Source: a virus
Strand: one strand, 5' to 3'
DNA length: 41,934 nucleotides
Virus record (IMG/VR): IMGVR_UViG_3300037483_000173
Positions 3,102 to 21,423 of this stretch are shown piece after piece. The position numbers and the translations under genes are program-made. The number at the start of each line of letters is the position of its first letter. The stretch's first letter is position 1. The notes beneath the pieces were generated by a model. The model had not been told where the DNA came from. It searched no databases and saw only the letters and a program-made list of their open reading frames with translations.

Positions 3102-3433
3102 GGTGTAGCACCCAACCCCCCAATAGAATCAAGCACTTAGCGCCCCCGCTACACCTGCTACACCAGCGCCACCGCAGGCGTAGCACCGTTTTCCCTTTGC
3201 ATATCAAGCACCTACACGATTGCTACACCTGCTACGCGGAAAACGGCCATCTATCCCACTGGGGATATACAGAACCCCCTACAGCTACCCCCTATCTAAT
3301 ACTATATATCTCATAATAATATAATAGATGTAGCAGATGTAGCAGTAAGCTTAACCTGTTGATCCTAAAGGCAAAAGGCCGCTACACCTACCCCATCCAC
3401 TAGGTGTAGCACACGTGTAGCAGGTGTAGCACG
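3102..3433. repeat. Iteron-like array of at least 12 copies of core TGTAGCA (often GGTGTAGCA[C/G]) in both orientations, flanking an AT-rich block at about 3290-3330
   Basis: Copies read at 3102-3111, 3148-3164 (two, inverted), 3178-3186, 3221-3237 (two, inverted), 3327-3345 (two), 3381-3388 (inverted) and 3403-3433 (three). The AT-rich run is ctatctaatactatatatctcataataatataata. Confidence 0.8.
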
Positions 3434-3487
3434 CGCCCCGCTGGCGATATATTACCCGCTGAATCTGCGATTATTTGCAGATAGCAC

Positions 3488-3516
3488 TTGACACCTTGTA
3501 CAAGGGCCGCTAATCT
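3488..3516 (+). promoter_or_regulatory. Sigma70-type promoter for the early plus-strand block, with the CTTGTACAAG palindrome in the spacer
   Basis: TTGACA at 3488-3493, a 17-bp spacer and TAATCT at 3511-3516. The palindrome sits at 3495-3504. An AGGAG RBS and ATG 3570 lie downstream. Confidence 0.6.
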
Positions 3517-3569
3517 CTCCCCCCATGCAGTACGCAATTATTCGCAACCAACCATAGGAGCACCAGACC

Positions 3570-4025
3570 ATGAAAACCGAATACATCAAAGCAACCCGCG
3601 CCCAGCTGATCGCAACCATGAAGGCCGGCGACATCTCACGCCGCACCGATACCATGGAGGTGTGCCAGCGATACCAGTATTTCTCGCTGGACGAGGCCAA
3701 GAAGGCAGCAGGCAGTGCCGACTACAAACGCCCCGGCACGCTGCTTGACTGCCGCGTGTACGTCACGAACAGGTCCGGCACGTACGGCCACCAGTTCCTC
3801 GCAGCCATCTGGGTCCACGTGGACGGGGAACGGTACCAGGCTAGCGGCACAATGACCGGCGGTTGTGGTTACGACAAGATCAGCACGGCGGTAGACTCCG
3901 CGTTCGGCGCCCTGGGCCTTGACGGTAGCCTGGTGGAGTATTTCAGCGGCACCGGCCAGCATGAACAGGTGCTCGATGAGCTGGCGGCAAAGCTGGCCGG
4001 GCGTAAATCGTGGTTTAAGGTATAA
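3570..4025 (+). CDS. Hypothetical early protein
   Basis: 151-aa ORF with AGGAG RBS, followed by a terminator hairpin. I recognise no family. Confidence 0.7.
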   Translation: MKTEYIKATRAQLIATMKAGDISRRTDTMEVCQRYQYFSLDEAKKAAGSADYKRPGTLLDCRVYVTNRSGTYGHQFLAAIWVHVDGERYQASGTMTGGCGYDKISTAVDSAFGALGLDGSLVEYFSGTGQHEQVLDELAAKLAGRKSWFKV

Positions 4026-5821: not shown

Positions 5822-6025
5822 TCAATCCGGTTTTGTTGCCGCCCCCAACAGCCGCCGCAGCTCGGCCGCCTCCCCCAACAGCCGCCGCAGCTCGGCCACC
5901 TCCCCCAACAGCCGCCGCAGCTCGGCCACCTCCTGCCGCAGCCGCTTGTTCTCGGCCTCCAGGGCCATGACGGCCTCATAGGCATCGTCGGGTAATAGGG
6001 GCTTTGCTTTTAGTTTGTCGGTCAT
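5822..6025 (-). CDS. Small coiled-coil protein with three 10-aa repeats (AELRRLLGE[V/A])
   Basis: ATG at 6025 overlaps the upstream TGA (ATGA) and follows AAGGAG. 67 aa. Confidence 0.55.
   Translation of the reverse strand: MTDKLKAKPLLPDDAYEAVMALEAENKRLRQEVAELRRLLGEVAELRRLLGEAAELRRLLGAATKPD
5843..5932. repeat. Tandem 30-bp repeat, three units (coding)
   Basis: cccccaacagccgccgcagctcggcc(g/a)cct occurs three times, followed by a partial fourth unit. Confidence 0.9.
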
Positions 6026-7725
6026 TCGCCGTTCTCCTTTATCCATACTCGTTTTTGATGACCACCAACCCGCCTGTTCCGGTTAACGTACCCCATGCCC
6101 GTCAGGATAGCTGCCGCTCGTTTGTCCTGCAGATTGTTCTTATTTCGCACCTCGATGCCGAGCCCAGACAGCAATTCGGAGGTAGTGAATGGCCGTTCGC
6201 CGTTCGCCGCCGGACCGGTATCCGCATCGCCGAACTCAGGCGTAGCGGCCAGCCAGGTGGATATGTCCTCTTTCCAGGGGTCCACCAGCTTGTGCTTATG
6301 GTGGACATTTCGCGCCAGGCGCTCCGCCTCCTGCCACAACACATTACCTACAGCGAACCGCTCTCTAGCCTCGGCCCATAGCTGCAGCCGGTCGCGCTCG
6401 ATGGCTCGAAGATTGACGGAGGACACCACCACGGGCAGGAACCGCCGCTCGCCGGTCTCATCCCCCAGGAACTCGTTTTTGTTGGTAGTGCCTATGATCA
6501 AGCAGCGCCGGGGGAATTGCGTCGCGAACTCCTTGAACTTGGGCACCCAGTTCTCGTGGGTGCGGGTGATGTACGCCTTGATGTGTTCGATCTCCCGGCT
6601 ATGCAGGCCCTTCAGCTCCCCAACCTCGGCCACCAGCCGGCCGCGCATCTGCCGGGCCAGGTCTTCTTCCTTGCGGTTGAAATCCATCTCGAAGAAAAAG
6701 TCCTCACTGGGGACCAGGGCTGCCACACCGGTGGACTTACCCACCCCCTGCCCCCCGACGAGGATGGGCATCATGTCGGCTTTGATGCCCGGGGACATAA
6801 CCCGCCCGGCCATGGCGGTCCACATGTAGGCGCTCACTGCGCGGGTGTAGTCGCTATCCTCTGCGCCGAAATATTCTGGCAGGAAGCGGTCCAGGCGCGG
6901 CAGGCCGTCCCATTCGAGGGATTCAAGCCAGAGGATTGCGGAGTCGAACTTGTTCTTATCGACAACGAACTCCACTGCGTCCCGCGCCATGTCCTTGGAT
7001 ACCGGCTTAAAACCATGGCGCTCCATGAGGATGCGCAGGGCGGTGTAGTCGGCGTCCGTCAGAGTGCGCCAATCATCGGTGCCAGCGTGGGCCAGCATCG
7101 TGGCGTCCTTGAACTCGTCAAAAGCTACGCGATGGCGGATGAAGGCCGGGTTGCCAACCGCTTTGCTCACGTTGTCGATACTGGCGAGGATCTGACCGGC
7201 CTTATTCCGCTCGAAGGCGGGCCAATCACCCTCCCCTTTTGCGTGTTCGTCCAGCGCCTGGAACTCATCCGGGTCCAGCGGCGTGTCCGCCGTCTCCCGC
7301 CAGCCAAGCGTGGCCGTCTCAAGTTCCAGCCGCTCACACAGCCACATGGCCGCGTCCACGACGCTGCCCAGGTCCTCGCCATGCTCCTGCACCAGCTCCA
7401 GCGGCGTGCGCTTGCCTTCGCGCTCGTCCCCCTGGTCGTGCACCCCGAAGTCCACGATACCCTCCGGCTGGATGCTCAGGTCCTCCTGCAGCGCCCTACC
7501 GAGGTCACGCGAGCCCACCCGGTAGCCTTGGCGGGCCTCCTGTGCGAACGGCAGCAGGGCGGGCACCCAGGCGGCCAGGTCGGCCATCGCGTGGTCATTG
7601 ACCCGCTGGAAGAACGACTTCTCGGCGTCAGGCACCACGGCGCGGGCTGCCGGGGCCTTGGCATTGGGGAAATACTTGGCGATGAGGGGCGTCAGGTCGA
7701 TGGGGGTGGTTGGGATTGTGTTCAC
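6022..7725 (-). CDS. VirE / D5-type P-loop primase-associated helicase
   Basis: 567 aa with Walker A GGQGVGKST and a Walker B-like LVAEVGE. The GTG start overlaps the prim-pol stop (GTGA). Confidence 0.8.
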   Translation of the reverse strand: MNTIPTTPIDLTPLIAKYFPNAKAPAARAVVPDAEKSFFQRVNDHAMADLAAWVPALLPFAQEARQGYRVGSRDLGRALQEDLSIQPEGIVDFGVHDQGDEREGKRTPLELVQEHGEDLGSVVDAAMWLCERLELETATLGWRETADTPLDPDEFQALDEHAKGEGDWPAFERNKAGQILASIDNVSKAVGNPAFIRHRVAFDEFKDATMLAHAGTDDWRTLTDADYTALRILMERHGFKPVSKDMARDAVEFVVDKNKFDSAILWLESLEWDGLPRLDRFLPEYFGAEDSDYTRAVSAYMWTAMAGRVMSPGIKADMMPILVGGQGVGKSTGVAALVPSEDFFFEMDFNRKEEDLARQMRGRLVAEVGELKGLHSREIEHIKAYITRTHENWVPKFKEFATQFPRRCLIIGTTNKNEFLGDETGERRFLPVVVSSVNLRAIERDRLQLWAEARERFAVGNVLWQEAERLARNVHHKHKLVDPWKEDISTWLAATPEFGDADTGPAANGERPFTTSELLSGLGIEVRNKNNLQDKRAAAILTGMGYVNRNRRVGGHQKRVWIKENGE

Positions 7726-14124: not shown

Positions 14125-14914
14125 CCAGATAAAACGCCCGATGTTCCCGGCTTCCGCTGAAACGCCTTGTTACACGGTTTTAGACCTCTTTTCGGGAATT
14201 GGCGGCTTCAGCCTTGGCCTCGAAAGAACCGGAGGGTTTAAGACCGTGGCATTTTGCGAGATTGACCAGGATTGCCGTGCTGTGTTGGGCAAGCATTGGC
14301 CGGGAACGCCGATATTTACGGATGTGAGAGAGGTTAAAAATGTTACAGCAGACGTTGTTTGCGGAGGTTTTCCTTGCCAGCCATTTAGCAGCATCAACAC
14401 CAGAGGGCGAAAGGGGGAGGAACATGCAGGGTATTTGTGGCCCGAAATGCTCAGAGTTATTGCCGAAACAAGACCCGCTTGGGTGCTTGGAGAAAATGTT
14501 TTGCGACTTAAACACATGGCCCTCGACACCATACAAAATGACCTTGAAGAGATCGGCTACGAAAGCAGGGCGTTTGTTGTGCCAGCTTGCGCCATTGGAT
14601 CGCCGCAACTGCGGGAAAGGGTTTTCGTGGTGGCGCACTCCCAGAGCCAGCGAAAGCCAAGAGCCGTGGAGACAGGTAAAGGAGAGGCGGCAACGGATGC
14701 GCGAAGCTGGCGACACACAGACCGGCGACCTGTACGGAACGACCCAGCAAGCGCAGATTGCGGACGGCGTGGAGAATGGCCACCTTATACCGGAGTTTGT
14801 CGAGTGGCTCCAGGGCTACCCGGAAGGGTGGACAAGGCTAGAATAAGGCAACTAGGAAATACAGTGCTGCCCGGAATTACCGAGATTTTCGGGCGGATGC
14901 TGTTGTCAGTGTAA
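14117..14914 (+). CDS. DNA (cytosine-5)-methyltransferase; the middle of the gene looks frame-disrupted (see finding)
   Basis: Motif I DLFSGIGGF, IV GGFPCQPFS, VI GENV, VIII QLRERVFVVA and X LGNTVLP are all in this frame. The ATG overlaps the end of the previous gene. Confidence 0.75.
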   Translation: MNNQIKRPMFPASAETPCYTVLDLFSGIGGFSLGLERTGGFKTVAFCEIDQDCRAVLGKHWPGTPIFTDVREVKNVTADVVCGGFPCQPFSSINTRGRKGEEHAGYLWPEMLRVIAETRPAWVLGENVLRLKHMALDTIQNDLEEIGYESRAFVVPACAIGSPQLRERVFVVAHSQSQRKPRAVETGKGEAATDARSWRHTDRRPVRNDPASADCGRRGEWPPYTGVCRVAPGLPGRVDKARIRQLGNTVLPGITEIFGRMLLSV

Positions 14915-14976
14915 CGGCAATTTAAGGGGCCGGAGCGACAGCGACGGTCCCGCTTGAAATTATTGTTATATTCCCC

Positions 14977-15005
14977 TTGACGCGGTACGCATTGCGTACT
15001 ATTAT
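14977..15005 (+). promoter_or_regulatory. Strong sigma70-type promoter with a palindromic operator in the spacer
   Basis: TTGACG at 14977-14982, a 17-bp spacer and TATTAT at 15000-15005. The spacer holds GTACGCA-T-TGCGTAC at 14985-14999. Confidence 0.6.
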
Positions 15006-15056
15006 TAACTCAACGGTAAGGGGCAGGCCCTGACCGATACCAAGGGGAACGACGAA

Positions 15057-15272
15057 ATGAAACAGCTAATTGATTTTGCAGAGAACGCATGGCATTTCAG
15101 TAACGACGAAAACACCGTCCGTGTTGATGTAGACAAGGAGCTCTACCCTGACGGTGAATACTATTTCAGGGTAACGAAAATGCACAACGATGCAGGCGGG
15201 ACAATAATTCAGACTGAGTTGCAGTTGAGCGAAGACGCGGCAAAAAACCTCGTTGAGTTGTGGACTAAATGA
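15057..15272 (+). CDS. Hypothetical protein
   Basis: 71-aa ORF downstream of the promoter. Confidence 0.55.
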   Translation: MKQLIDFAENAWHFSNDENTVRVDVDKELYPDGEYYFRVTKMHNDAGGTIIQTELQLSEDAAKNLVELWTK

Positions 15273-15490
15273 CCTGGGATGAACTGAACGAGGCCCGGCG
15301 AAAGCTGGGCCTCACTGAGGCGCAGATGGCGAGCCTGCTGCAGGTCGGGTTGAGCACCTACAAGGGATGGAGTGGAAAGGACCCTCGCCGCAAGGCGGGG
15401 CCCCCTGATTACATCGCGGCCAGCGTAGAGGCTCACATGATGTTGAATAAGCTGGCTCTCGGCAAGCTGAGGGCTGGCCGGGGAATATAA
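15269..15490 (+). CDS. XRE-type HTH protein
   Basis: 73 aa with LGLTEAQMASLLQVGLSTYKGW. ATGA coupling to the upstream gene. Confidence 0.6.
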   Translation: MTWDELNEARRKLGLTEAQMASLLQVGLSTYKGWSGKDPRRKAGPPDYIAASVEAHMMLNKLALGKLRAGRGI

Positions 15491-15509
15491 CGATTGGAGG
15501 TAAGCGGCG

Positions 15510-15737
15510 ATGCTGGAAAGAAAGGTTGAATGCGAGGACTGCGGTGAAACGTATCCGCCAGGATGGCCGCACACATGCGGATCGTCCGCTTCACCGACTT
15601 GTTCAACGGCGGACCTGAACGAAGGCGTTTGGTTTCAGTCGGCGGTTTCCGGTGGATGGTATCGGAACCACAAGGCGGCGGGAGCCGTGCGAATGGTTAT
15701 GGTCGACGGGCGCTCTTACTTTCGAGATGGCGCATAG
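15510..15737 (+). CDS. Hypothetical protein with an N-terminal CxxC..C motif
   Basis: 75-aa ORF with GGAGG RBS. Confidence 0.5.
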   Translation: MLERKVECEDCGETYPPGWPHTCGSSASPTCSTADLNEGVWFQSAVSGGWYRNHKAAGAVRMVMVDGRSYFRDGA

Positions 15738-15788
15738 CCGTTGAACACTGGACTATACGGACTGTGCAAAGTCGTGGATTGAGGATCA

Positions 15789-16091
15789 ATGACTTATAGG
15801 GTAAACAAAAAGGCAAGGAAGTTGTGGTCCGAACAGGCTAACGCCAAAAAAGAGCGCTTGCGCATGCAGCGTAGCGAGCGTGACCCGCTTGTTGACCTCG
15901 ATCCATATCTCAAAATAACAGTGGAGCGGAAGGCAACAGGAGAGATCGCTGTGTTCGAGTGCTTTGAAGGCGACAGGATCGACAACTACCGCGTCTACTG
16001 CAATGACGCGTTCCAGGGCGTGCAGAGCATAAGCACGATAACCAAGAATCTTCGCAAAGCACTGCCGAGATTCCGTAGGATGGACGAATGA
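15789..16091 (+). CDS. Hypothetical protein
   Basis: 100-aa ORF with GAGGA RBS. ATGA coupling to the polymerase gene. Confidence 0.55.
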   Translation: MTYRVNKKARKLWSEQANAKKERLRMQRSERDPLVDLDPYLKITVERKATGEIAVFECFEGDRIDNYRVYCNDAFQGVQSISTITKNLRKALPRFRRMDE

Positions 16092-17224
16092 CCGTTTTAT
16101 ACCTGGACACAGAGACCTACAACGAAACCGACCTGAAGGCCGCGGGCACGTACCGCTATGCTGAGACGGCGGAGATCATGCTGATCACCTACGCCATCGA
16201 CGATGGGCCTGTGCAGTGTTGGGACTATAGCGAAGGAGAGGCACCGCCGGATTTTGCTGCGTTTGTCGCCAGATACCCGGACCTGCAGGTGGTGGCACAC
16301 AACGCCATGTTCGACCGCAACGTGCTGCGCTTGGGGAGTATCAGCCACCAGCACATCGACATCCCCATTGAACGGTGGCAGTGCACTATGGTCCAGGCCA
16401 TGCAACACGCGCTACCAGGTAGTCTGGATGAACTGGGTCGGGTGCTGGGCTTGCCGGAGGACCAGCGCAAATTGGCCGAGGGCAAGAAGCTGATCCAACG
16501 CTTCTGCAAGCCCGCACCGAAGAACCACAAGGCTCGCCGCTACACCCGTGAGACGCACCCGGAAGAATGGCAGCGGTTCAATGAGTACGCCAAGCAGGAC
16601 GTGTCCACGATGCGCGAGGTTCACAAGCGTCTGCCCACCTGGAACTGGAAGGCCGATGACATCGCCATGTACCACCTGGACCAGCGCATCAACGACCGCG
16701 GCTTCGCGGTGGACCTAGAACTAGCGCGCGCTGGGGCCGCCGCCGCCATTGTGGAGAAAGAGGCACTGGCCGCCCGCTTCCAGGAGCTGACCGGGCTCAA
16801 TCCTACCCAGCGGGCCAAGGTGCAGGCGTTCCTCAACGACAACTATGGCCTCGGCATCGACTCCACGGCCAAGCATATAATGCAGCCCATCGCCGATGAC
16901 GAATCGCTGCCGGCGCAGTTGCGGGAAATCGCCAGCATCATGCTCTCTGCCAACAAGACCAGCACGGCCAAGTACGCGGCCATTGCCGAAGCGGTCAGCA
17001 GCGACGGGCGGTTTCGTGGCGGCTTGCAGTTCGCCGGTGCCAGTCGCACACGGCGCTGGGCGGGACGCAAATTCCAGCCACAAAATCTACCGTCTCGCGG
17101 GCTGCCGAAGGCGCACCAGATTGAGACGTATATCGCCGCGCTAAAGGCCGGGGTGCATGTGGAACTGTTTGACGATTTAATGCTGTACGGTGCCGCGGCG
17201 TTGCGCGGTGTGGTGGTTGCTTAA
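16088..17224 (+). CDS. Family A DNA polymerase, N-terminal fragment (3'-5' exonuclease and N-terminal polymerase region)
   Basis: 378 aa. LYLDTETYN (Exo I-like) and HNAMFDRNVL (Exo II-like). It stops at ..LRGVVVA, just before the expected motif A. Confidence 0.8.
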   Translation: MTVLYLDTETYNETDLKAAGTYRYAETAEIMLITYAIDDGPVQCWDYSEGEAPPDFAAFVARYPDLQVVAHNAMFDRNVLRLGSISHQHIDIPIERWQCTMVQAMQHALPGSLDELGRVLGLPEDQRKLAEGKKLIQRFCKPAPKNHKARRYTRETHPEEWQRFNEYAKQDVSTMREVHKRLPTWNWKADDIAMYHLDQRINDRGFAVDLELARAGAAAAIVEKEALAARFQELTGLNPTQRAKVQAFLNDNYGLGIDSTAKHIMQPIADDESLPAQLREIASIMLSANKTSTAKYAAIAEAVSSDGRFRGGLQFAGASRTRRWAGRKFQPQNLPSRGLPKAHQIETYIAALKAGVHVELFDDLMLYGAAALRGVVVA

Positions 17225-17236
17225 AGGAGGATGGAG

Positions 17237-17758
17237 ATGAGCAAGCGTTTTGGTAGGAATAAGAAACGGAAGATGCGGCAGCAGATCGCGGACTTGAAGT
17301 ACGCGCAAGCCATGGACCGGGGATTGGCCGAACACACGGGGCGAAAACTCAGAGCCCTCGAATCCGAGATGCGCGAATGGGAGGAGCGGGTGCGCGCCCT
17401 ACTTGGGCACGCCTCCGGCTTCACAAGAACCCCAGGGCGCATCGCCTCCGCACAGCCAATGCCGCCAGAGTTTCAGACCCCTTTGATGCGACAACTGCCA
17501 GGTCTTGGGGCCGTTGCTCCCGGAACCCCGCCCCGATCTGGAATGGACATATTCAACACGACAATGTACCGGTTGGAAACAGCCGTACATGAAGGGGCGG
17601 ATCTCGCGGCATATGTCCACCTGTATATCGGCCACAACGATAAGTTGGGGTACTACATGAGCCGGAAGATGTTGGACGCCCTCGGTCTTGGCCCGGAGGG
17701 CATGCGGTATGTCGCGGAAGATATCGCTCGTCGATTCGATGCAGAACTACGCAAATGA
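17237..17758 (+). CDS. Hypothetical protein encoded in the insertion that splits the polymerase gene
   Basis: AAGGAGG RBS at 17224-17230. Candidate starts are ATG 17231 or 17237. The N-terminus is basic (KRFGRNKKRKMRQQ). The stop overlaps the ATG of the C-terminal polymerase fragment (ATGA). I see no HEG motif. Confidence 0.6.
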   Translation: MSKRFGRNKKRKMRQQIADLKYAQAMDRGLAEHTGRKLRALESEMREWEERVRALLGHASGFTRTPGRIASAQPMPPEFQTPLMRQLPGLGAVAPGTPPRSGMDIFNTTMYRLETAVHEGADLAAYVHLYIGHNDKLGYYMSRKMLDALGLGPEGMRYVAEDIARRFDAELRK

Positions 17759-19578
17759 AACTCGTCGTCTCAGACCTCTCCAACATCGAAGGCCGGGTAC
17801 TCGCGTACCTGGCCGGCGAAGAGTGGAAGCTGGAAGCGTTCCGCGCCTATGACCGTGGTGAAGGGCCGGACCTGTACAACATCACGGCCACCAGCATCAT
17901 CGGCGGTGACCCGTGGGCGGTGGAGAAGGCCAACCGCAATGCCTTTGGTAAAGTGCCCGATCTAGCGTGCCTCGGCCCTGAAACCCAAGTGTTGACGGAT
18001 TCTGGATATAAGGCTATCGTGGCGGTGTCTGAGACCGATAAACTATGGGATGGTGACGAATGGGTGGGCCACGCAGGATTAATAGATCGCGGTGTCCGGA
18101 AGGTTGTACGTGTGGACGGCATCGTGGTAACACCGGATCATTTCATCTTAACCGGGAAAATATGGAAGCAGGCGAGGCTACTCGCTTCAAACGCAAACGA
18201 CCTCCGCCGAGCATTGGGACGCGGTTCGGAGAACTTACCGTCGTCGGCTACCAATACGGTCCCGCGGGGGGCCTACGCGGCATCATCGTTGGCTGTGATT
18301 GCGGAGCGGAACCACATGCTGTCGCACAAAGCAATTTGCTATCTGGGCGAACCACGCGGTGTAACAAATGCGCGAAAGCCGCATCAAATCGTTGGCGTAA
18401 GAATTACTACGGCTACGCGGATATTGTCCCAGATGAGGCACATCGTAGACGGCTGCTCAATCGGGTTGCGGCGTGTATTAACCGCTGTCGGAATCCACGG
18501 GACGCATCCTACGCCAACTACGGCGGACGAGGGATACACGTATTTACGGAGTGGGAGACCGACCGGCGGGCATTCCTCAGATACCTCGTTACTCTGGATG
18601 GGTGGGACCAACCGGAACTTGAACTCGACCGGATCGATGTTAATCGTGGGTATGAGCCGGGAAATCTCCGGTTCATTACCAGACGCGAAAATCGCCGGAA
18701 CCAACGAACCGTCCGCGATCTCCAGCAACACATCGCCGATCTTGAGCAGCGTCTACGACATTGCACATGCGGGGCCGCGGAGTCGATTCACAATCCGGAC
18801 GAATAACGGACACCTCATCGTTCACAACTGCGGGTACGGAGGTGGTGTCGGCGCCTTCCGCACATTCGCCAAAGCCTACCGCATCACCATGGAGGAGCAC
18901 TGGCCCACCATCCGACAGAACATCGCCGCACCGCTCATCGAGCAGGCCCGGCAGAACCTCGAGAAGTGGGGCCGTCCGCAGCTGGCGGATCTGGAAATCA
19001 GTGAACTGGAATGGGTGGCGAGCGAATCAGTGAAGCTGGCCTGGCGGGCAAGGCACCCGGCCACCCGCAAGCTGTGGTACGACTGCGAGAACGCTGCCCG
19101 CAACGCACTGCGCACCCCGAACACGACGTTCAACGCAGGGCGGCATCTGAAGTTCCGATTCGTTGAGCACGTCAGTGGCAATTGGCTGCTGGTGCGCCTG
19201 CCCAGCGGCAAGTTCCTGACGTACTTCGATCCACGTCTGACCTCCGACGATAGCATCTCCTATCTCGGATACGGGCAAGAGGGCGAGGCCACTGCGCGGG
19301 TATGGTCTCGACAGTACACATACGGCGGAAAAATCGTTGAAAATTCGGCCCAGGCGTTGGCCGGGGACGTACTGAAAGCCAACATGCCGCGCATTGAGGA
19401 AGCCGGGTATGAAATCGTACTCACCGTCCACGATGAAGCCGTCACCCAGGCCCCCGACACCGACGAGTACAACGCGGAGAAGTTGAGCGCGTTGCTGGCG
19501 GTAGCGCCGGAATGGGCGCCCGGCCTGCCGCTGGCGGCGGCTGGGTTTGAAAGTTACCGATATAAAAAGGAGGATTAA
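17755..19578 (+). CDS. Family A DNA polymerase, C-terminal fragment (motifs A-C) interrupted by a 287-aa intein
   Basis: It starts at ..VVSDLSNIEGRVLA (motif A-like). Later motifs include the ..GYGGGVGAF.. segment and ..VLTVHDEAV (motif C-like). The exteins are 17755-17967 and 18829-19578. Confidence 0.85.
   Translation: MKLVVSDLSNIEGRVLAYLAGEEWKLEAFRAYDRGEGPDLYNITATSIIGGDPWAVEKANRNAFGKVPDLACLGPETQVLTDSGYKAIVAVSETDKLWDGDEWVGHAGLIDRGVRKVVRVDGIVVTPDHFILTGKIWKQARLLASNANDLRRALGRGSENLPSSATNTVPRGAYAASSLAVIAERNHMLSHKAICYLGEPRGVTNARKPHQIVGVRITTATRILSQMRHIVDGCSIGLRRVLTAVGIHGTHPTPTTADEGYTYLRSGRPTGGHSSDTSLLWMGGTNRNLNSTGSMLIVGMSREISGSLPDAKIAGTNEPSAISSNTSPILSSVYDIAHAGPRSRFTIRTNNGHLIVHNCGYGGGVGAFRTFAKAYRITMEEHWPTIRQNIAAPLIEQARQNLEKWGRPQLADLEISELEWVASESVKLAWRARHPATRKLWYDCENAARNALRTPNTTFNAGRHLKFRFVEHVSGNWLLVRLPSGKFLTYFDPRLTSDDSISYLGYGQEGEATARVWSRQYTYGGKIVENSAQALAGDVLKANMPRIEEAGYEIVLTVHDEAVTQAPDTDEYNAEKLSALLAVAPEWAPGLPLAAAGFESYRYKKED
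17968..18828 (+). mobile_element. Intein inserted in the conserved GKV..LA|LGYGGG segment
   Basis: Cys1 with block A CLGPETQVLTDSG, block B TPDHFILT, block F VYDIAHAG..F and block G GHLIVHN, followed by a +1 Cys (CGYGGG). Confidence 0.8.
18162..18806 (+). CDS. HNH-type homing-endonuclease homologue nested in the intein but in a different reading frame
   Basis: This frame encodes FGELTVVGY..CDCG..V....L.SGRT.RC.KC...YANYGGRGI.V..EW........LDRIDVNRGYEPGNLRFITRRENRRNQ. That pattern is typical of free-standing phage HNH endonucleases. It is offset from the polymerase/intein frame. Confidence 0.65.
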   Translation: MEAGEATRFKRKRPPPSIGTRFGELTVVGYQYGPAGGLRGIIVGCDCGAEPHAVAQSNLLSGRTTRCNKCAKAASNRWRKNYYGYADIVPDEAHRRRLLNRVAACINRCRNPRDASYANYGGRGIHVFTEWETDRRAFLRYLVTLDGWDQPELELDRIDVNRGYEPGNLRFITRRENRRNQRTVRDLQQHIADLEQRLRHCTCGAAESIHNPDE

Positions 19579-19580
19579 CC

Positions 19581-19880
19581 GTGCTCGAATCGAAAGTAGA
19601 AAAATACCTGGTCAAACGCATCGAAGCCATCGGCGGTACGGCGGAGAAATTCACCTCCCCGAATCGGCGCAGCGTGCCGGACAGGTTGGTGCTGATTGAT
19701 GTTGGGGAGAATACGCCTATCGGGCCATTCGGGGTAGCTATCTTCGTAGAGCTGAAAGCCCCCGGCAAGAAGCCAACGCCCGCCCAGCAACGGGATCACG
19801 AACGGCGCAGGGCCATGGGCTTCCGGGTAGAGGTGCTGGACTCTATCGAGGCGGTGGACGAATTCGTGGAGGGGCTGTGA
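19581..19880 (+). CDS. VRR-NUC domain nuclease
   Basis: 99 aa with GTG start. It has the ..GVPDRLVL.. and ..FVELKAPGKKPTPAQ.. pattern. Confidence 0.7.
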   Translation: MLESKVEKYLVKRIEAIGGTAEKFTSPNRRSVPDRLVLIDVGENTPIGPFGVAIFVELKAPGKKPTPAQQRDHERRRAMGFRVEVLDSIEAVDEFVEGL

Positions 19881-20068
19881 TGCACGTCACCGAACTGCTG
19901 GACATACTGAAGCTGCAGGGCATACCGCACAAAGAGGCGGTGCGCCAGGCCAGGGCCATGCTCAAGGAGCAGGAGCGCATTCAGCTCGCGAATGCGGTGA
20001 AGATGCGGGCCGGGCGTAAAGCCGTCAAGCCGAAGCCATCGTATGGTGGGTGGGGGAATGGGCGTTGA
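19877..20068 (+). CDS. Hypothetical protein
   Basis: 63-aa ORF overlapping its neighbours at both ends. Confidence 0.45.
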   Translation: MMHVTELLDILKLQGIPHKEAVRQARAMLKEQERIQLANAVKMRAGRKAVKPKPSYGGWGNGR

Positions 20069-21423
20069 TATTCACCCCCCGCCCCTACCAGCGCACCGCC
20101 CTTGCCCACGCGCTCAACACACCACGCAATGCGCTGTGGCTGGGCATGGGCCTCGGCAAGACCTCCATCACGCTGGAAGCCATCTCCGTGCTGCACACGC
20201 TGGGCGCGGTGAAGAACGTGCTGGTCATCGCCCCGTTGCGCGTGGCCCGCAGCACATGGCCGAATGAGGTGGCCAAGTGGGAGAACTTCGCGCACCTCGG
20301 CGCAGTGCCCATCGTCGGCACGCCGGACCAGCGCAAGAAGGCGGTGGAGAAGAAGGCGGTGATCCACACCATCAACTACGAGAACCTGCCGTGGCTGGTG
20401 GAGCGATGGGGCGACCGGTGGCCCTATGCTATGGTGGTGCCCGACGAGGCCACCAAGCTCAAGTCCTTCCGTCTCGGAGGGGGCAAGGGCCAACGGGCAC
20501 GGGCGCTGGGCAAGGTTGCCCACACGAAGGTCCACCACTGGGGCAATCTCACTGGCACGCCGGCGCCGAACGGACTGGCGGATCTGTGGGGGCCGACGTG
20601 GTTCCTGGACAAGGGCGCACGCCTCGGCCGCACGCACACGGCCTTCACCGAACGCTGGTTCCGGCCCAGTTACAACGGCTTCGGCCTGGAGCCGATGGAC
20701 CACGCGCACGATGAGATCCACCAGCGGCTGTCCGACCTCTGCCTGTCAATGGAAGCGAAGGACCACTTCGACCTGCCGGAGCTGGTGCTCAACACCATCG
20801 AGGTGGACCTGCCCCCGTCGGCTCGCAAGCTATACACGGACATGGAGAAGCAGATGTTCATGGAGCTGGCTGGGGAGCCCGTGGAGGCGTTCAACGCCGC
20901 AGCCCGCACCATGAAACTATTACAGCTCGCTAATGGCGCGGCGTATATCTCGGAGGGCCGCTGGGCGCACGTCCACGACGCCAAACTGGACGCCCTGGAA
21001 GACATCATCGAGGAAGCCGCGGGCGCTCCGATACTGGTGGCCTACCATTTCAAGTCCGACCTGGAGCGGCTGCGCCATCGCTTCCCCAAGCTGCGGCATC
21101 TGGACGCCAATCCGCAAACAGAAGCCGACTGGAACGCCGGGCGCATTCCGCTGTTGGCGCTCCATCCCGCCAGCGCCGGCCACGGCCTAAACCTCCAACA
21201 CGGCGGCAACATCATGGTGTTCTTCGGGCTGAACTGGAATCTGGAGGAGCGGCTGCAGGTGATCGAGCGCATCGGCCCCACCCGCCAGGCGCAGAGTGGC
21301 TACGACCGGCCGGTGTTCGTCCACAACCTCGTGGCCAAGAACACAGTAGACGAACTGGTGCTCGCCCGTATTGAGACCAAACGTTCGGTGCAGGACTTAC
21401 TGATGGAGGCGATGAAGCGATGA
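20050..21423 (+). CDS. SNF2/DEAD-like superfamily 2 helicase
   Basis: 457 aa with RPYQ, GLGKT, the DEAT box and C-terminal helicase motifs (..GLNLQ.. and others). Confidence 0.8.
   Translation: MGEWALIFTPRPYQRTALAHALNTPRNALWLGMGLGKTSITLEAISVLHTLGAVKNVLVIAPLRVARSTWPNEVAKWENFAHLGAVPIVGTPDQRKKAVEKKAVIHTINYENLPWLVERWGDRWPYAMVVPDEATKLKSFRLGGGKGQRARALGKVAHTKVHHWGNLTGTPAPNGLADLWGPTWFLDKGARLGRTHTAFTERWFRPSYNGFGLEPMDHAHDEIHQRLSDLCLSMEAKDHFDLPELVLNTIEVDLPPSARKLYTDMEKQMFMELAGEPVEAFNAAARTMKLLQLANGAAYISEGRWAHVHDAKLDALEDIIEEAAGAPILVAYHFKSDLERLRHRFPKLRHLDANPQTEADWNAGRIPLLALHPASAGHGLNLQHGGNIMVFFGLNWNLEERLQVIERIGPTRQAQSGYDRPVFVHNLVAKNTVDELVLARIETKRSVQDLLMEAMKR

Follow-up and report, generated by a model that had tools for sequence, protein, structure and literature searches.

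Two polymerase cistrons and the gene between them

In the 41,934-nt stretch of viral DNA held as IMG/VR record IMGVR_UViG_3300037483_000173 (hereafter the window, meaning this stretch at its full length), a DNA polymerase is encoded in two same-strand cistrons, and a small gene, ORF173, occupies the boundary between them (Table 1). The two cistrons jointly keep all of the conserved motifs of a gene that is contiguous in loci L004 and L106, in Bordetella phage BPP-1, and in others. Profile matches, motifs, and the fold of a homologue place the enzyme among family A (Pol I/Klenow-like) polymerases with a 3'-5' exonuclease. The N-terminal fragment (N-fragment) matched the DNA polymerase family phrog_17 (E=2.6e-60) and, weakly, Pfam DNA_pol_A_exo1, and the C-terminal fragment (C-fragment) matched phrog_7766 (E=7.6e-53) as well as the DNA polymerase families phrog_10285 and phrog_17, with a match of its residues 2-63 to Pfam DNA_pol_A (E=1.9e-6) that is below the gathering score. 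Further, the motifs DTET and VHDE are readable in the translations of the fragments. Sequence searches of the PDB with the fragments gave no usable match because the clade is too divergent; we therefore modelled an intact homologue, P0264, with AlphaFold (predicted local distance difference test [pLDDT] 89; predicted template modelling score 0.87) and matched its fold, for which the best hit among PDB folds, over the whole length, was the Klenow fragment (1kfs; E=4e-19, template modelling score 0.62-0.66).

The gene order near the polymerase (C5 methylase ... polymerase, small 99-aa gene, SNF2 helicase) resembles that of BPP-1. Among the cultured phages in INPHARED, identity to the N-fragment is no higher than 47%, and the gene is intact in those inspected. 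The same three genes are found on a public contig of separate assembly (Logan SRR12684493, 16.8 kb), whose sequence matches window positions 14237-20758 with 100% identity.

Table 1. Features of the polymerase locus in the window, and content of the slot between the polymerase halves in split relatives (percentages are N-fragment identities)
Feature	Coordinates	Strand	Description
DNA polymerase N-terminal cistron (378 aa)	16088..17224	+	3'-5' exonuclease, thumb, first part of palm
Shine-Dalgarno AAGGAGG for the small gene	17224..17230	+	overlaps last base of N-fragment stop TAA (17222-17224)
ORF173 (173 aa; 175 aa if from 17231)	17237..17758	+	member of PHROG 20923, an uncharacterised phage family
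ATGA overlap	17755..17758	+	ORF173 stop/C-fragment start; read from sequence
DNA polymerase C-terminal cistron (607 aa)	17755..19578	+	motif A DLSNIEGR, intein-interrupted motif B, motif C VHDE
Intein (287 aa, C72..N358 of C-fragment)	17968..18828	+	in motif B, ..KVPDLA/C...HN/CGYGGG
HNH endonuclease ORF (248 aa)	18060..18806	+	+2 frame relative to intein; phrog_374, E=5.9e-37; dual-coding
Slot of L094 (88%; closest relative with context)			two ORFans, 103 and 105 aa
Slot of L186 (78%)			84-aa ORF and more
Slot of L095-97 (75%)			60-aa ORF, ATGA overlap at both ends
Slot of L187 (72%)	3303-3794		163-aa PF13392 HNH_3 endonuclease gene, AP2-like C-terminus, stop overlapping C-fragment ATG
Slot of L105 (69%)	7125 to contig end		zinc-finger HNH/EndoVII-like ORF, phrog_2340, E=4e-10
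Slot of L188			69-aa ORF
Slot of L189			three ORFs
Slot of L112			99-aa ORF
Slot of L070			promoter-like site and 76-aa ORF

The break falls in the loop preceding motif A

To place the break, we aligned the fragments with intact polymerases, namely BPP-1 Bbp42, those of Caulobacter phage RW and coliphage ZCEC10, and that of L004 (70% identity). The N-fragment aligns with residues 1-385 of the intact homologues and ends in ..AALRGVVVA, followed directly by its stop codon, at the loop preceding motif A. The break site lies between ..RG(V/C)xxA and (K)KLVV(S/A)DLSNIEG, where intact alleles of the L004/L106 type read ..GCGCCnGGnGGCAAnAAnCTGGT.., and just 4-5 residues are lost there, 'P(E/G)GK' ('PEGK' by comparison with BPP-1, RW, and ZCEC10). 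This alignment with intact homologues, which the original prediction had called for, sets the insertion point and bears out the predicted clean break into two cistrons just before motif A. In the P0264 model, the junction (A373/SPGK) falls at residues 373-376, which form the loop between a strand at 371-372 and a strand at 377-384, the latter bearing the motif A Asp383. The 'ALRGVVVA' junction probably corresponds to 'RIRQAFIA / PEDYVIVSADYSQIELR' of E. coli Pol I; if it does, the active site would be built from both chains.

Both translation signals named in the original prediction, namely (i) an AAGGAGG for the small open reading frame (ORF) and (ii) an ATGA overlap with the C-fragment start, are present. 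The first ATG of the small ORF (17231) directly abuts the Shine-Dalgarno sequence, and a further ATG, at 17237, is 6 nt downstream of it. Because of this spacing, and because all 83 homologues found with HMMER (see below) align from query residue 3, the start is most likely the ATG at 17237, with a product of 173 aa beginning MSKRFG... Thus, the predicted 175-aa ORF is present at 17231..17758, whereas its protein probably has 173 residues. The ATG of the C-fragment (..gcagaactacgcaaATGA) is not preceded by a Shine-Dalgarno sequence, and from this together with the ATGA overlap we infer translational coupling. The ATGA overlap at the C-fragment start also occurs in L187, L095, and L100, and L098 has a one-base TGATG overlap instead.

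The N-half would be translated first, followed by ORF173 from its own strong Shine-Dalgarno sequence, and ribosomes ending ORF173 would probably re-initiate on the C-fragment ATG (termination-reinitiation). The intein in the C-half would be spliced out afterwards, and the two polymerase chains would presumably associate non-covalently into an active heterodimer, for which the conservation of both halves in many genomes is indirect support. Programmed frameshifting was also considered as a means of fusing the halves and was rejected; the junction shows no evident slippery site, and variants with an insert could not be fused in this way.

Relatives share the split and differ in what lies at the junction

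The N-fragment has roughly 700 homologues, and most of its 120 best homologue clusters (90% down to ~45% identity) are 355-390 aa long, not ~650 aa. Approximately 60 of these clusters end at the window's junction (..ALRGxxx(A/V), then stop), ~27 end ~16 aa earlier, and ~24 are intact (~610-660 aa). Genomic context was sampled for 13 split relatives with N-fragments 54-88% identical to that of the window. There is no insert in L098/99, L100/101, L102/103, L104, and L108, in which the halves abut or overlap, by TGATG in L098/99 (69% identity), by ATGA in L100/101 and L102/103, and by 11 nt in L104. A stop codon and, in a different frame, a separate ATG are nevertheless present at the junction of these insert-free relatives, which argues that two polypeptides are the norm for the clade.

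Elsewhere in the sample, the junction is occupied by genes of varied kinds (Table 1). A recognisable homing endonuclease gene lies between the halves in L187 and L105, and not in the window. The two slot ORFs share no homology, and that of L105 contains a CxxC...CxxC zinc finger and repeated 'AAYNAANKEK' units. The other slot ORFans are matchless, save for the L070 ORF, which matches phrog_25603 (function unknown). None of the sampled relatives has an ORF173 homologue in its slot, ORF173 being found there in the window only. Up to the N-fragment stop the DNA of the window is 86% identical to that of L094, and from the C-fragment start it is 90% identical, while the inserts between these points are unrelated, which is a clean cassette difference. 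A degenerate DNA pattern for the junction ('..AALRGVV(V/I)A-stop') found one IMG/VR contig only, which was already in the sample.

Judged from these sequences, the two-piece family A polymerase is common in the window's metagenomic phage clade, and the boundary between its cistrons is a hypervariable slot that is empty in some members and filled in others by unrelated small ORFans, by HNH-type genes, or, in the window, by ORF173. The original prediction had offered ORF173 as the agent that split the gene, or else as a factor needed to assemble the two-piece enzyme. Neither proposal is supported; homologues with separate fragments and no insert, which that prediction itself had named as contrary evidence, and relatives that carry other genes at the same junction tell against both.

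Intact genes occur at a similar distance from the window (L004, 70%; L106, 72%). In a bootstrapped neighbor-joining tree, the window group, which includes intact L004 and L106, falls in one 100%-supported clade, and a second split pair, L102/L108, falls in another 100%-supported clade beside intact L109/L110. Because the split groups lie in two separate clades of this support, each with intact genes, breakage or re-fusion at the loop before motif A appears to have happened two times or more.

Three further observations concern the slot and the polymerase gene at large. The slot of L070, a 1-kb metagenome contig, opens with a near-consensus sigma-70-like promoter (TTGACA, 17 nt, TATAGT; positions 700-745), and its DNA is richer in A+T than the flank (G+C 0.50 versus 0.64), which points to a cassette equipped with a transcription signal of its own. 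Another split site that recurs is found ~16 residues upstream of that of the window (L115, L117, L118, and L184, and the ~27 clusters above, e.g., P0261, P0265, and P0270); here the N-half ends ..KAGxHxxxF(G), then stop, the C-half starts MAYGSAALRGVV.., and the site is likewise an inter-helix loop in the P0264 model. Moreover, L008 and L009 (~31% identity) carry a ~790-bp insertion at ~6005-6798, near polymerase residues 290-332, which is a third interruption site.

ORF173 belongs to a phage family linked to replication genes

An exhaustive HMMER search of a 1.84-billion-protein library found 83 full-length homologues of ORF173 (160-210 aa; E ≤ 1e-3), and a profile search raised the family to 263 members; because of these relatives, ORF173 is a genuine gene and no chance ORF. 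Among 40 aligned sequences (ORF173 and 39 relatives), 37 matched phrog_20923 (best E=3e-13), with ORF173 itself matching at E=1e-5 through its N-terminus only. The family surfaced only in the exhaustive HMMER and profile searches; a word-indexed protein search with ORF173 returned ORF173 alone, tblastn yielded two matches among 50,697 phage records, both partial and marginal, and a single-protein scan of IMG/VR found nothing.

The N-terminus of the family is an invariant MS(K/R)R(F/Y)GRNQKRRxR. In the structural model of ORF173 (pLDDT 79), this region leads into a long, coiled-coil-type helix at residues 7-56, with pLDDT >90 for residues 11-50, and the hydrophobic periodicity has a power of 55 at 3.5 residues, compared with 1-6 at periods of 3, 4, 5, and 7. 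The C-terminal domain is small and alpha/beta (strand/helix), with His128 and Tyr139 nearly invariant in the family. ORF173 has no family in Pfam, NCBIfam, or PADLOC, its sole Pfam match being a sub-threshold, coiled-coil one to ZapB; the best PDB profile match had only E=1.1, and Foldseek comparisons of the model with PDB and BFVD gave nothing meaningful (best E>1). The original prediction had recognised no GIY-YIG, HNH, or LAGLIDADG motif in the ORF, and this holds; no such motif or fold, nor a PD-(D/E)XK or Vsr-like one, was detected in Pfam, the PHROG nuclease families, NCBIfam, PADLOC, PDB sequences and folds, or BFVD folds.

Relatives of ORF173 are encoded at 53 other viral loci in IMG/VR, and at none of these do they lie between polymerase halves. 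The neighbours, mapped for 52 loci, differ almost everywhere, but they are replication or nucleotide-metabolism genes, namely DnaB-like and SNF2 helicases, ThyA, Pol III alpha, intact phrog_1252 polymerase, ligase, primase, and HNH genes. In L042 (2111-3985), the family gene directly follows an intact 625-aa DNA polymerase (phrog_1252), and in L047 (808-3711) a single small gene separates it from a Pol III alpha-like gene upstream of it. The family thus behaves as a floating accessory gene of phage replication modules. With low confidence, because the invariant arginine-rich N-terminus runs into a heptad-periodic helix and because the gene is located among replication genes, we suggest that ORF173 may be a dimeric basic-region/coiled-coil nucleic-acid-binding protein with an accessory or regulatory role in phage DNA replication. 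A basic segment that continues into a heptad-type helix recalls the bZIP-like basic-region/coiled-coil binders, in resemblance only and with no claim to membership.

How the arrangement may have arisen

We favour, with a probability of about 0.75, a naturally two-piece family A polymerase in which ORF173 is a passenger in a pre-existing hypervariable slot. We take ORF173 to be neither the splitter nor a dedicated assembly factor because the relatives share the split with an empty slot or with unrelated occupants. ORF173 would have arrived by cassette replacement or by insertion at an already existing cistron junction. The origin of the split was most likely an invasion of the conserved motif-A-coding site by a free-standing homing endonuclease gene, as suggested by the HNH genes that occupy the same slot in relatives. 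Such an invader would have supplied the upstream stop and the downstream Met, and the endonuclease gene would later have been lost or replaced.

Several points weigh against this account. The slot of the window contains no endonuclease remnant; the sample of 13 split relatives with context is small; and branch supports inside the window's clade are 23-71%, so that the order of split, re-fusion, and insertion cannot be fixed. Sequence is also our basis for inferring that a heterodimer assembles, that translation is coupled, and what ORF173 does. Moreover, the recurrence of ORF173 relatives beside polymerases of unrelated types hints at a replication-linked role, which may be a polymerase-related one.

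One alternative is that the two-piece polymerase needs ORF173 as an accessory subunit (for assembly, tethering, or processivity). Its place between the halves, its likely translational coupling to the C-fragment, the adjacency of family members to polymerases or helicases in other phages, and a predicted coiled coil that could serve as a protein-protein interface would all suit such a subunit. Nonetheless, we consider this improbable, given that relatives with 54-88% identical N-fragments have the same split and no ORF173-type gene in the slot, that the window holds no second copy of ORF173 elsewhere, and that the family in other phages accompanies unsplit, unrelated polymerases. Still somewhat less credible is an invasion in which ORF173 itself broke the polymerase gene, acting as a homing or mobility protein of non-canonical type and hence as a gene-splitting mobile element of a new kind. 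The family is sporadic, has different neighbours in each phage lineage, and is often ATGA-joined to the upstream gene, as free-standing homing endonuclease genes are in their genomes, and its neighbours include HNH genes; further, the nearly invariant His128 and Tyr139 have no assigned role. Against this stand the occurrence of the split without ORF173 in at least 13 sampled relatives, including the closest with context, and in ~60 homologue clusters, the lack of any nuclease signature in the collections listed above, and the 53 viral loci, where none of the examined neighbours looked broken, although other split genes were not systematically tested for. A more speculative extension, which we hold to be unlikely but rate above either of these two proposals, is that PHROG 20923 proteins might form a new class of selfish 'slot-hopping' genes of replication modules, that is, basic-region/coiled-coil DNA binders that spread between phages via cistron junctions opened by homing endonucleases, lock themselves in by taking control of the coupled translation of an essential gene downstream (here that for the catalytic polymerase half), and might also modulate the split polymerase.

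The remaining alternatives would restore a single polymerase or deny a functional one. Removal of 17222-17754 would, by arithmetic, join the two polymerase ORFs in frame, and group I introns are known to reside in polymerase genes of phages (discussed in PMC10580990), so the 530-bp insert could be imagined as a self-splicing intron, or as some other segment excised at the RNA level, that carries an ORF. A permissive Rfam scan of 16000-19800, however, found no intron family at E ≤ 10. Approximately 98% of the insert codes for protein, and the genes of that protein's family are found elsewhere between ordinary genes; with only 12 nt outside the 173-aa ORF, there is no room for a ribozyme core. 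Since insert-free relatives also keep the stop and the separate ATG, excision is highly unlikely, and the locus appears to encode three proteins, as the original prediction had held. We give just as little weight to an artefact or a decaying pseudogene, whether through mis-assembly or as the dead polymerase of a defective prophage. The sequence is probably metagenomic, and the sole other copy, on an identical contig, could stem from the same reads; yet both halves retain all catalytic motifs and stay open through the 287-aa intein, the junction signals (Shine-Dalgarno, ATGA overlaps) are orderly, and the same architecture recurs across many samples and across ENA, JGI, and Logan assemblies at 54-90% identity. 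Least likely of all, to the point of being negligible, is a 'fractured gene' whose halves are re-joined by a split intein through protein trans-splicing. Phage replication genes fractured in this way, an endonuclease gene separating the split-intein halves, have been described (PMC2677866), and the window's polymerase gene is intein-prone, but the sequence already contradicts this arrangement. The N-fragment ends 0-1 residue from the junction and the C-fragment starts 4-5 after it, leaving no intein halves of ~100 aa and ~35 aa, and the junction has no Cys/Ser/Thr nucleophile context.

The intein and an out-of-frame HNH reading frame

In agreement with the original prediction, the polymerase gene also carries an intein (Table 1). 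It is absent from the intact gene of L004 and from the 318-aa C-fragment of L098, and it is present at the same site in L187 and L102; residues 90-380 of the C-fragment match the endonuclease family phrog_93. The polymerase of Caulobacter phage RW (L002, 1629-4508), annotated as intact, has an intein at a different site (..TYSGKL/C...HN/CENVVQA), upstream of motif C, and the polymerase family has therefore been invaded by inteins at at least two positions.

The HNH ORF that overlaps the intein out of frame is conserved in L187 (4081-4839) and L102 (6466-7230), both of which are divergent. Over the same nucleotides, identity with L187 and L102 is 63% in amino acids in the HNH frame, compared with 37-39% in the intein frame, and in the window this region has no stops over 248 codons in either the HNH or the intein frame and 14 in the third frame. 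It looks like a free-standing-type homing endonuclease gene (HEG) overprinted on a mini-intein linker, and it could be an intermediate in the process by which endonucleases become intein domains (compare the model in PMC2677866). We found no description in the literature of an out-of-frame HNH gene inside an intein. A sigma-70-like site (TTGACG, 17 nt, TATCGT; 17992-18020, + strand) lies 40 nt upstream of the start of this ORF; a scan for such sites there gave one, compared with 1.8 in shuffled sequences, and the site is thus not above chance.

Comparison with known systems

Literature precedents for the split exist (PMC2988022, PMC2677866, PMC10580990), and we found no description of the window's own polymerase clade. 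In the T4-related Aeromonas phages 25 and 44RR, the PolB gene 43, contiguous in relatives, is split into 43A and 43B; what separates them is a seg homing endonuclease gene in one phage, and another phage has a different spacer that is non-coding. A review notes that gene 43 may already have been split when the endonuclease invaded it, and the 43A and 43B products co-purify and are active (PMC2988022). The window likewise has two same-strand polymerase cistrons with a variable gap. Its polymerase is of family A and not family B, however, the break site is another one, ORF173 is no recognisable endonuclease, and what is known of this clade comes from sequence.

Another parallel is route Ia of the gene-breaking model of Dassa et al. 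(2009), in which a free-standing HEG inserts into a critical conserved region, gives the upstream half its stop, and overlaps with its 3' end the new initiator Met of the downstream half (PMC2677866). L187, with its HNH_3 gene and ATGA overlap, matches this state exactly, and the window keeps the same ATGA architecture. In Aeh1, mobE splits nrdA and makes of the ribonucleotide reductase a case of 'genes-in-pieces' (Friedrich et al. 2007, as cited in PMC2988022); by comparison, the slot gene of the window lacks a nuclease signature, many relatives have lost any insert, and the slot behaves as an exchangeable cassette site. The fractured genes with split inteins (PMC2677866) resemble the window in having a broken phage replication enzyme, a free-standing gene between its parts, and an overlapping stop and start. 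They differ in that the window junction has no split-intein halves, and therefore no trans-splicing, the window's intein being separate, contiguous, and 71 residues downstream.

Phage polymerases of family A in two ORFs also occur in MEP401 and MEP402, where an ORF of unknown function separates the halves, and clade B of the T7-like cyanophages has a split DNA polymerase too (PMC12695635); here again the split is conserved across a lineage. By contrast, the phage lineage is another one (related to Zobellviridae), and in the cyanophages the split sets the exonuclease domain apart; the likeness drawn here is one of architecture.

Implications

Comparable split polymerases and genes-in-pieces were already known, and current understanding is not overturned; what is new here is (i) a clade without a cultured member of more than 47% identity, (ii) the exact break point, (iii) the breadth of slot variability, and (iv) the occupant family. 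The out-of-frame HNH ORF within the intein may merit more attention than the split itself. With more than 260 sequences, a link to replication, an invariant N-terminal motif, and no known fold, the ORF173 family is a sensible choice for functional work. Chain breakage is tolerated in the loop before motif A, apparently broken at least two times independently, which is useful for the engineering of split Pol I-type enzymes. Further, the locus offers a natural system for how free-standing endonuclease genes fracture essential genes and then vanish or yield to other cargo. In the uncultured, BPP-1-related phage clade to which the window belongs, the two-cistron family A polymerase is the rule and not a defect, and annotation pipelines and polymerase phylogenies should merge the two halves instead of labelling them fragments or pseudogenes.

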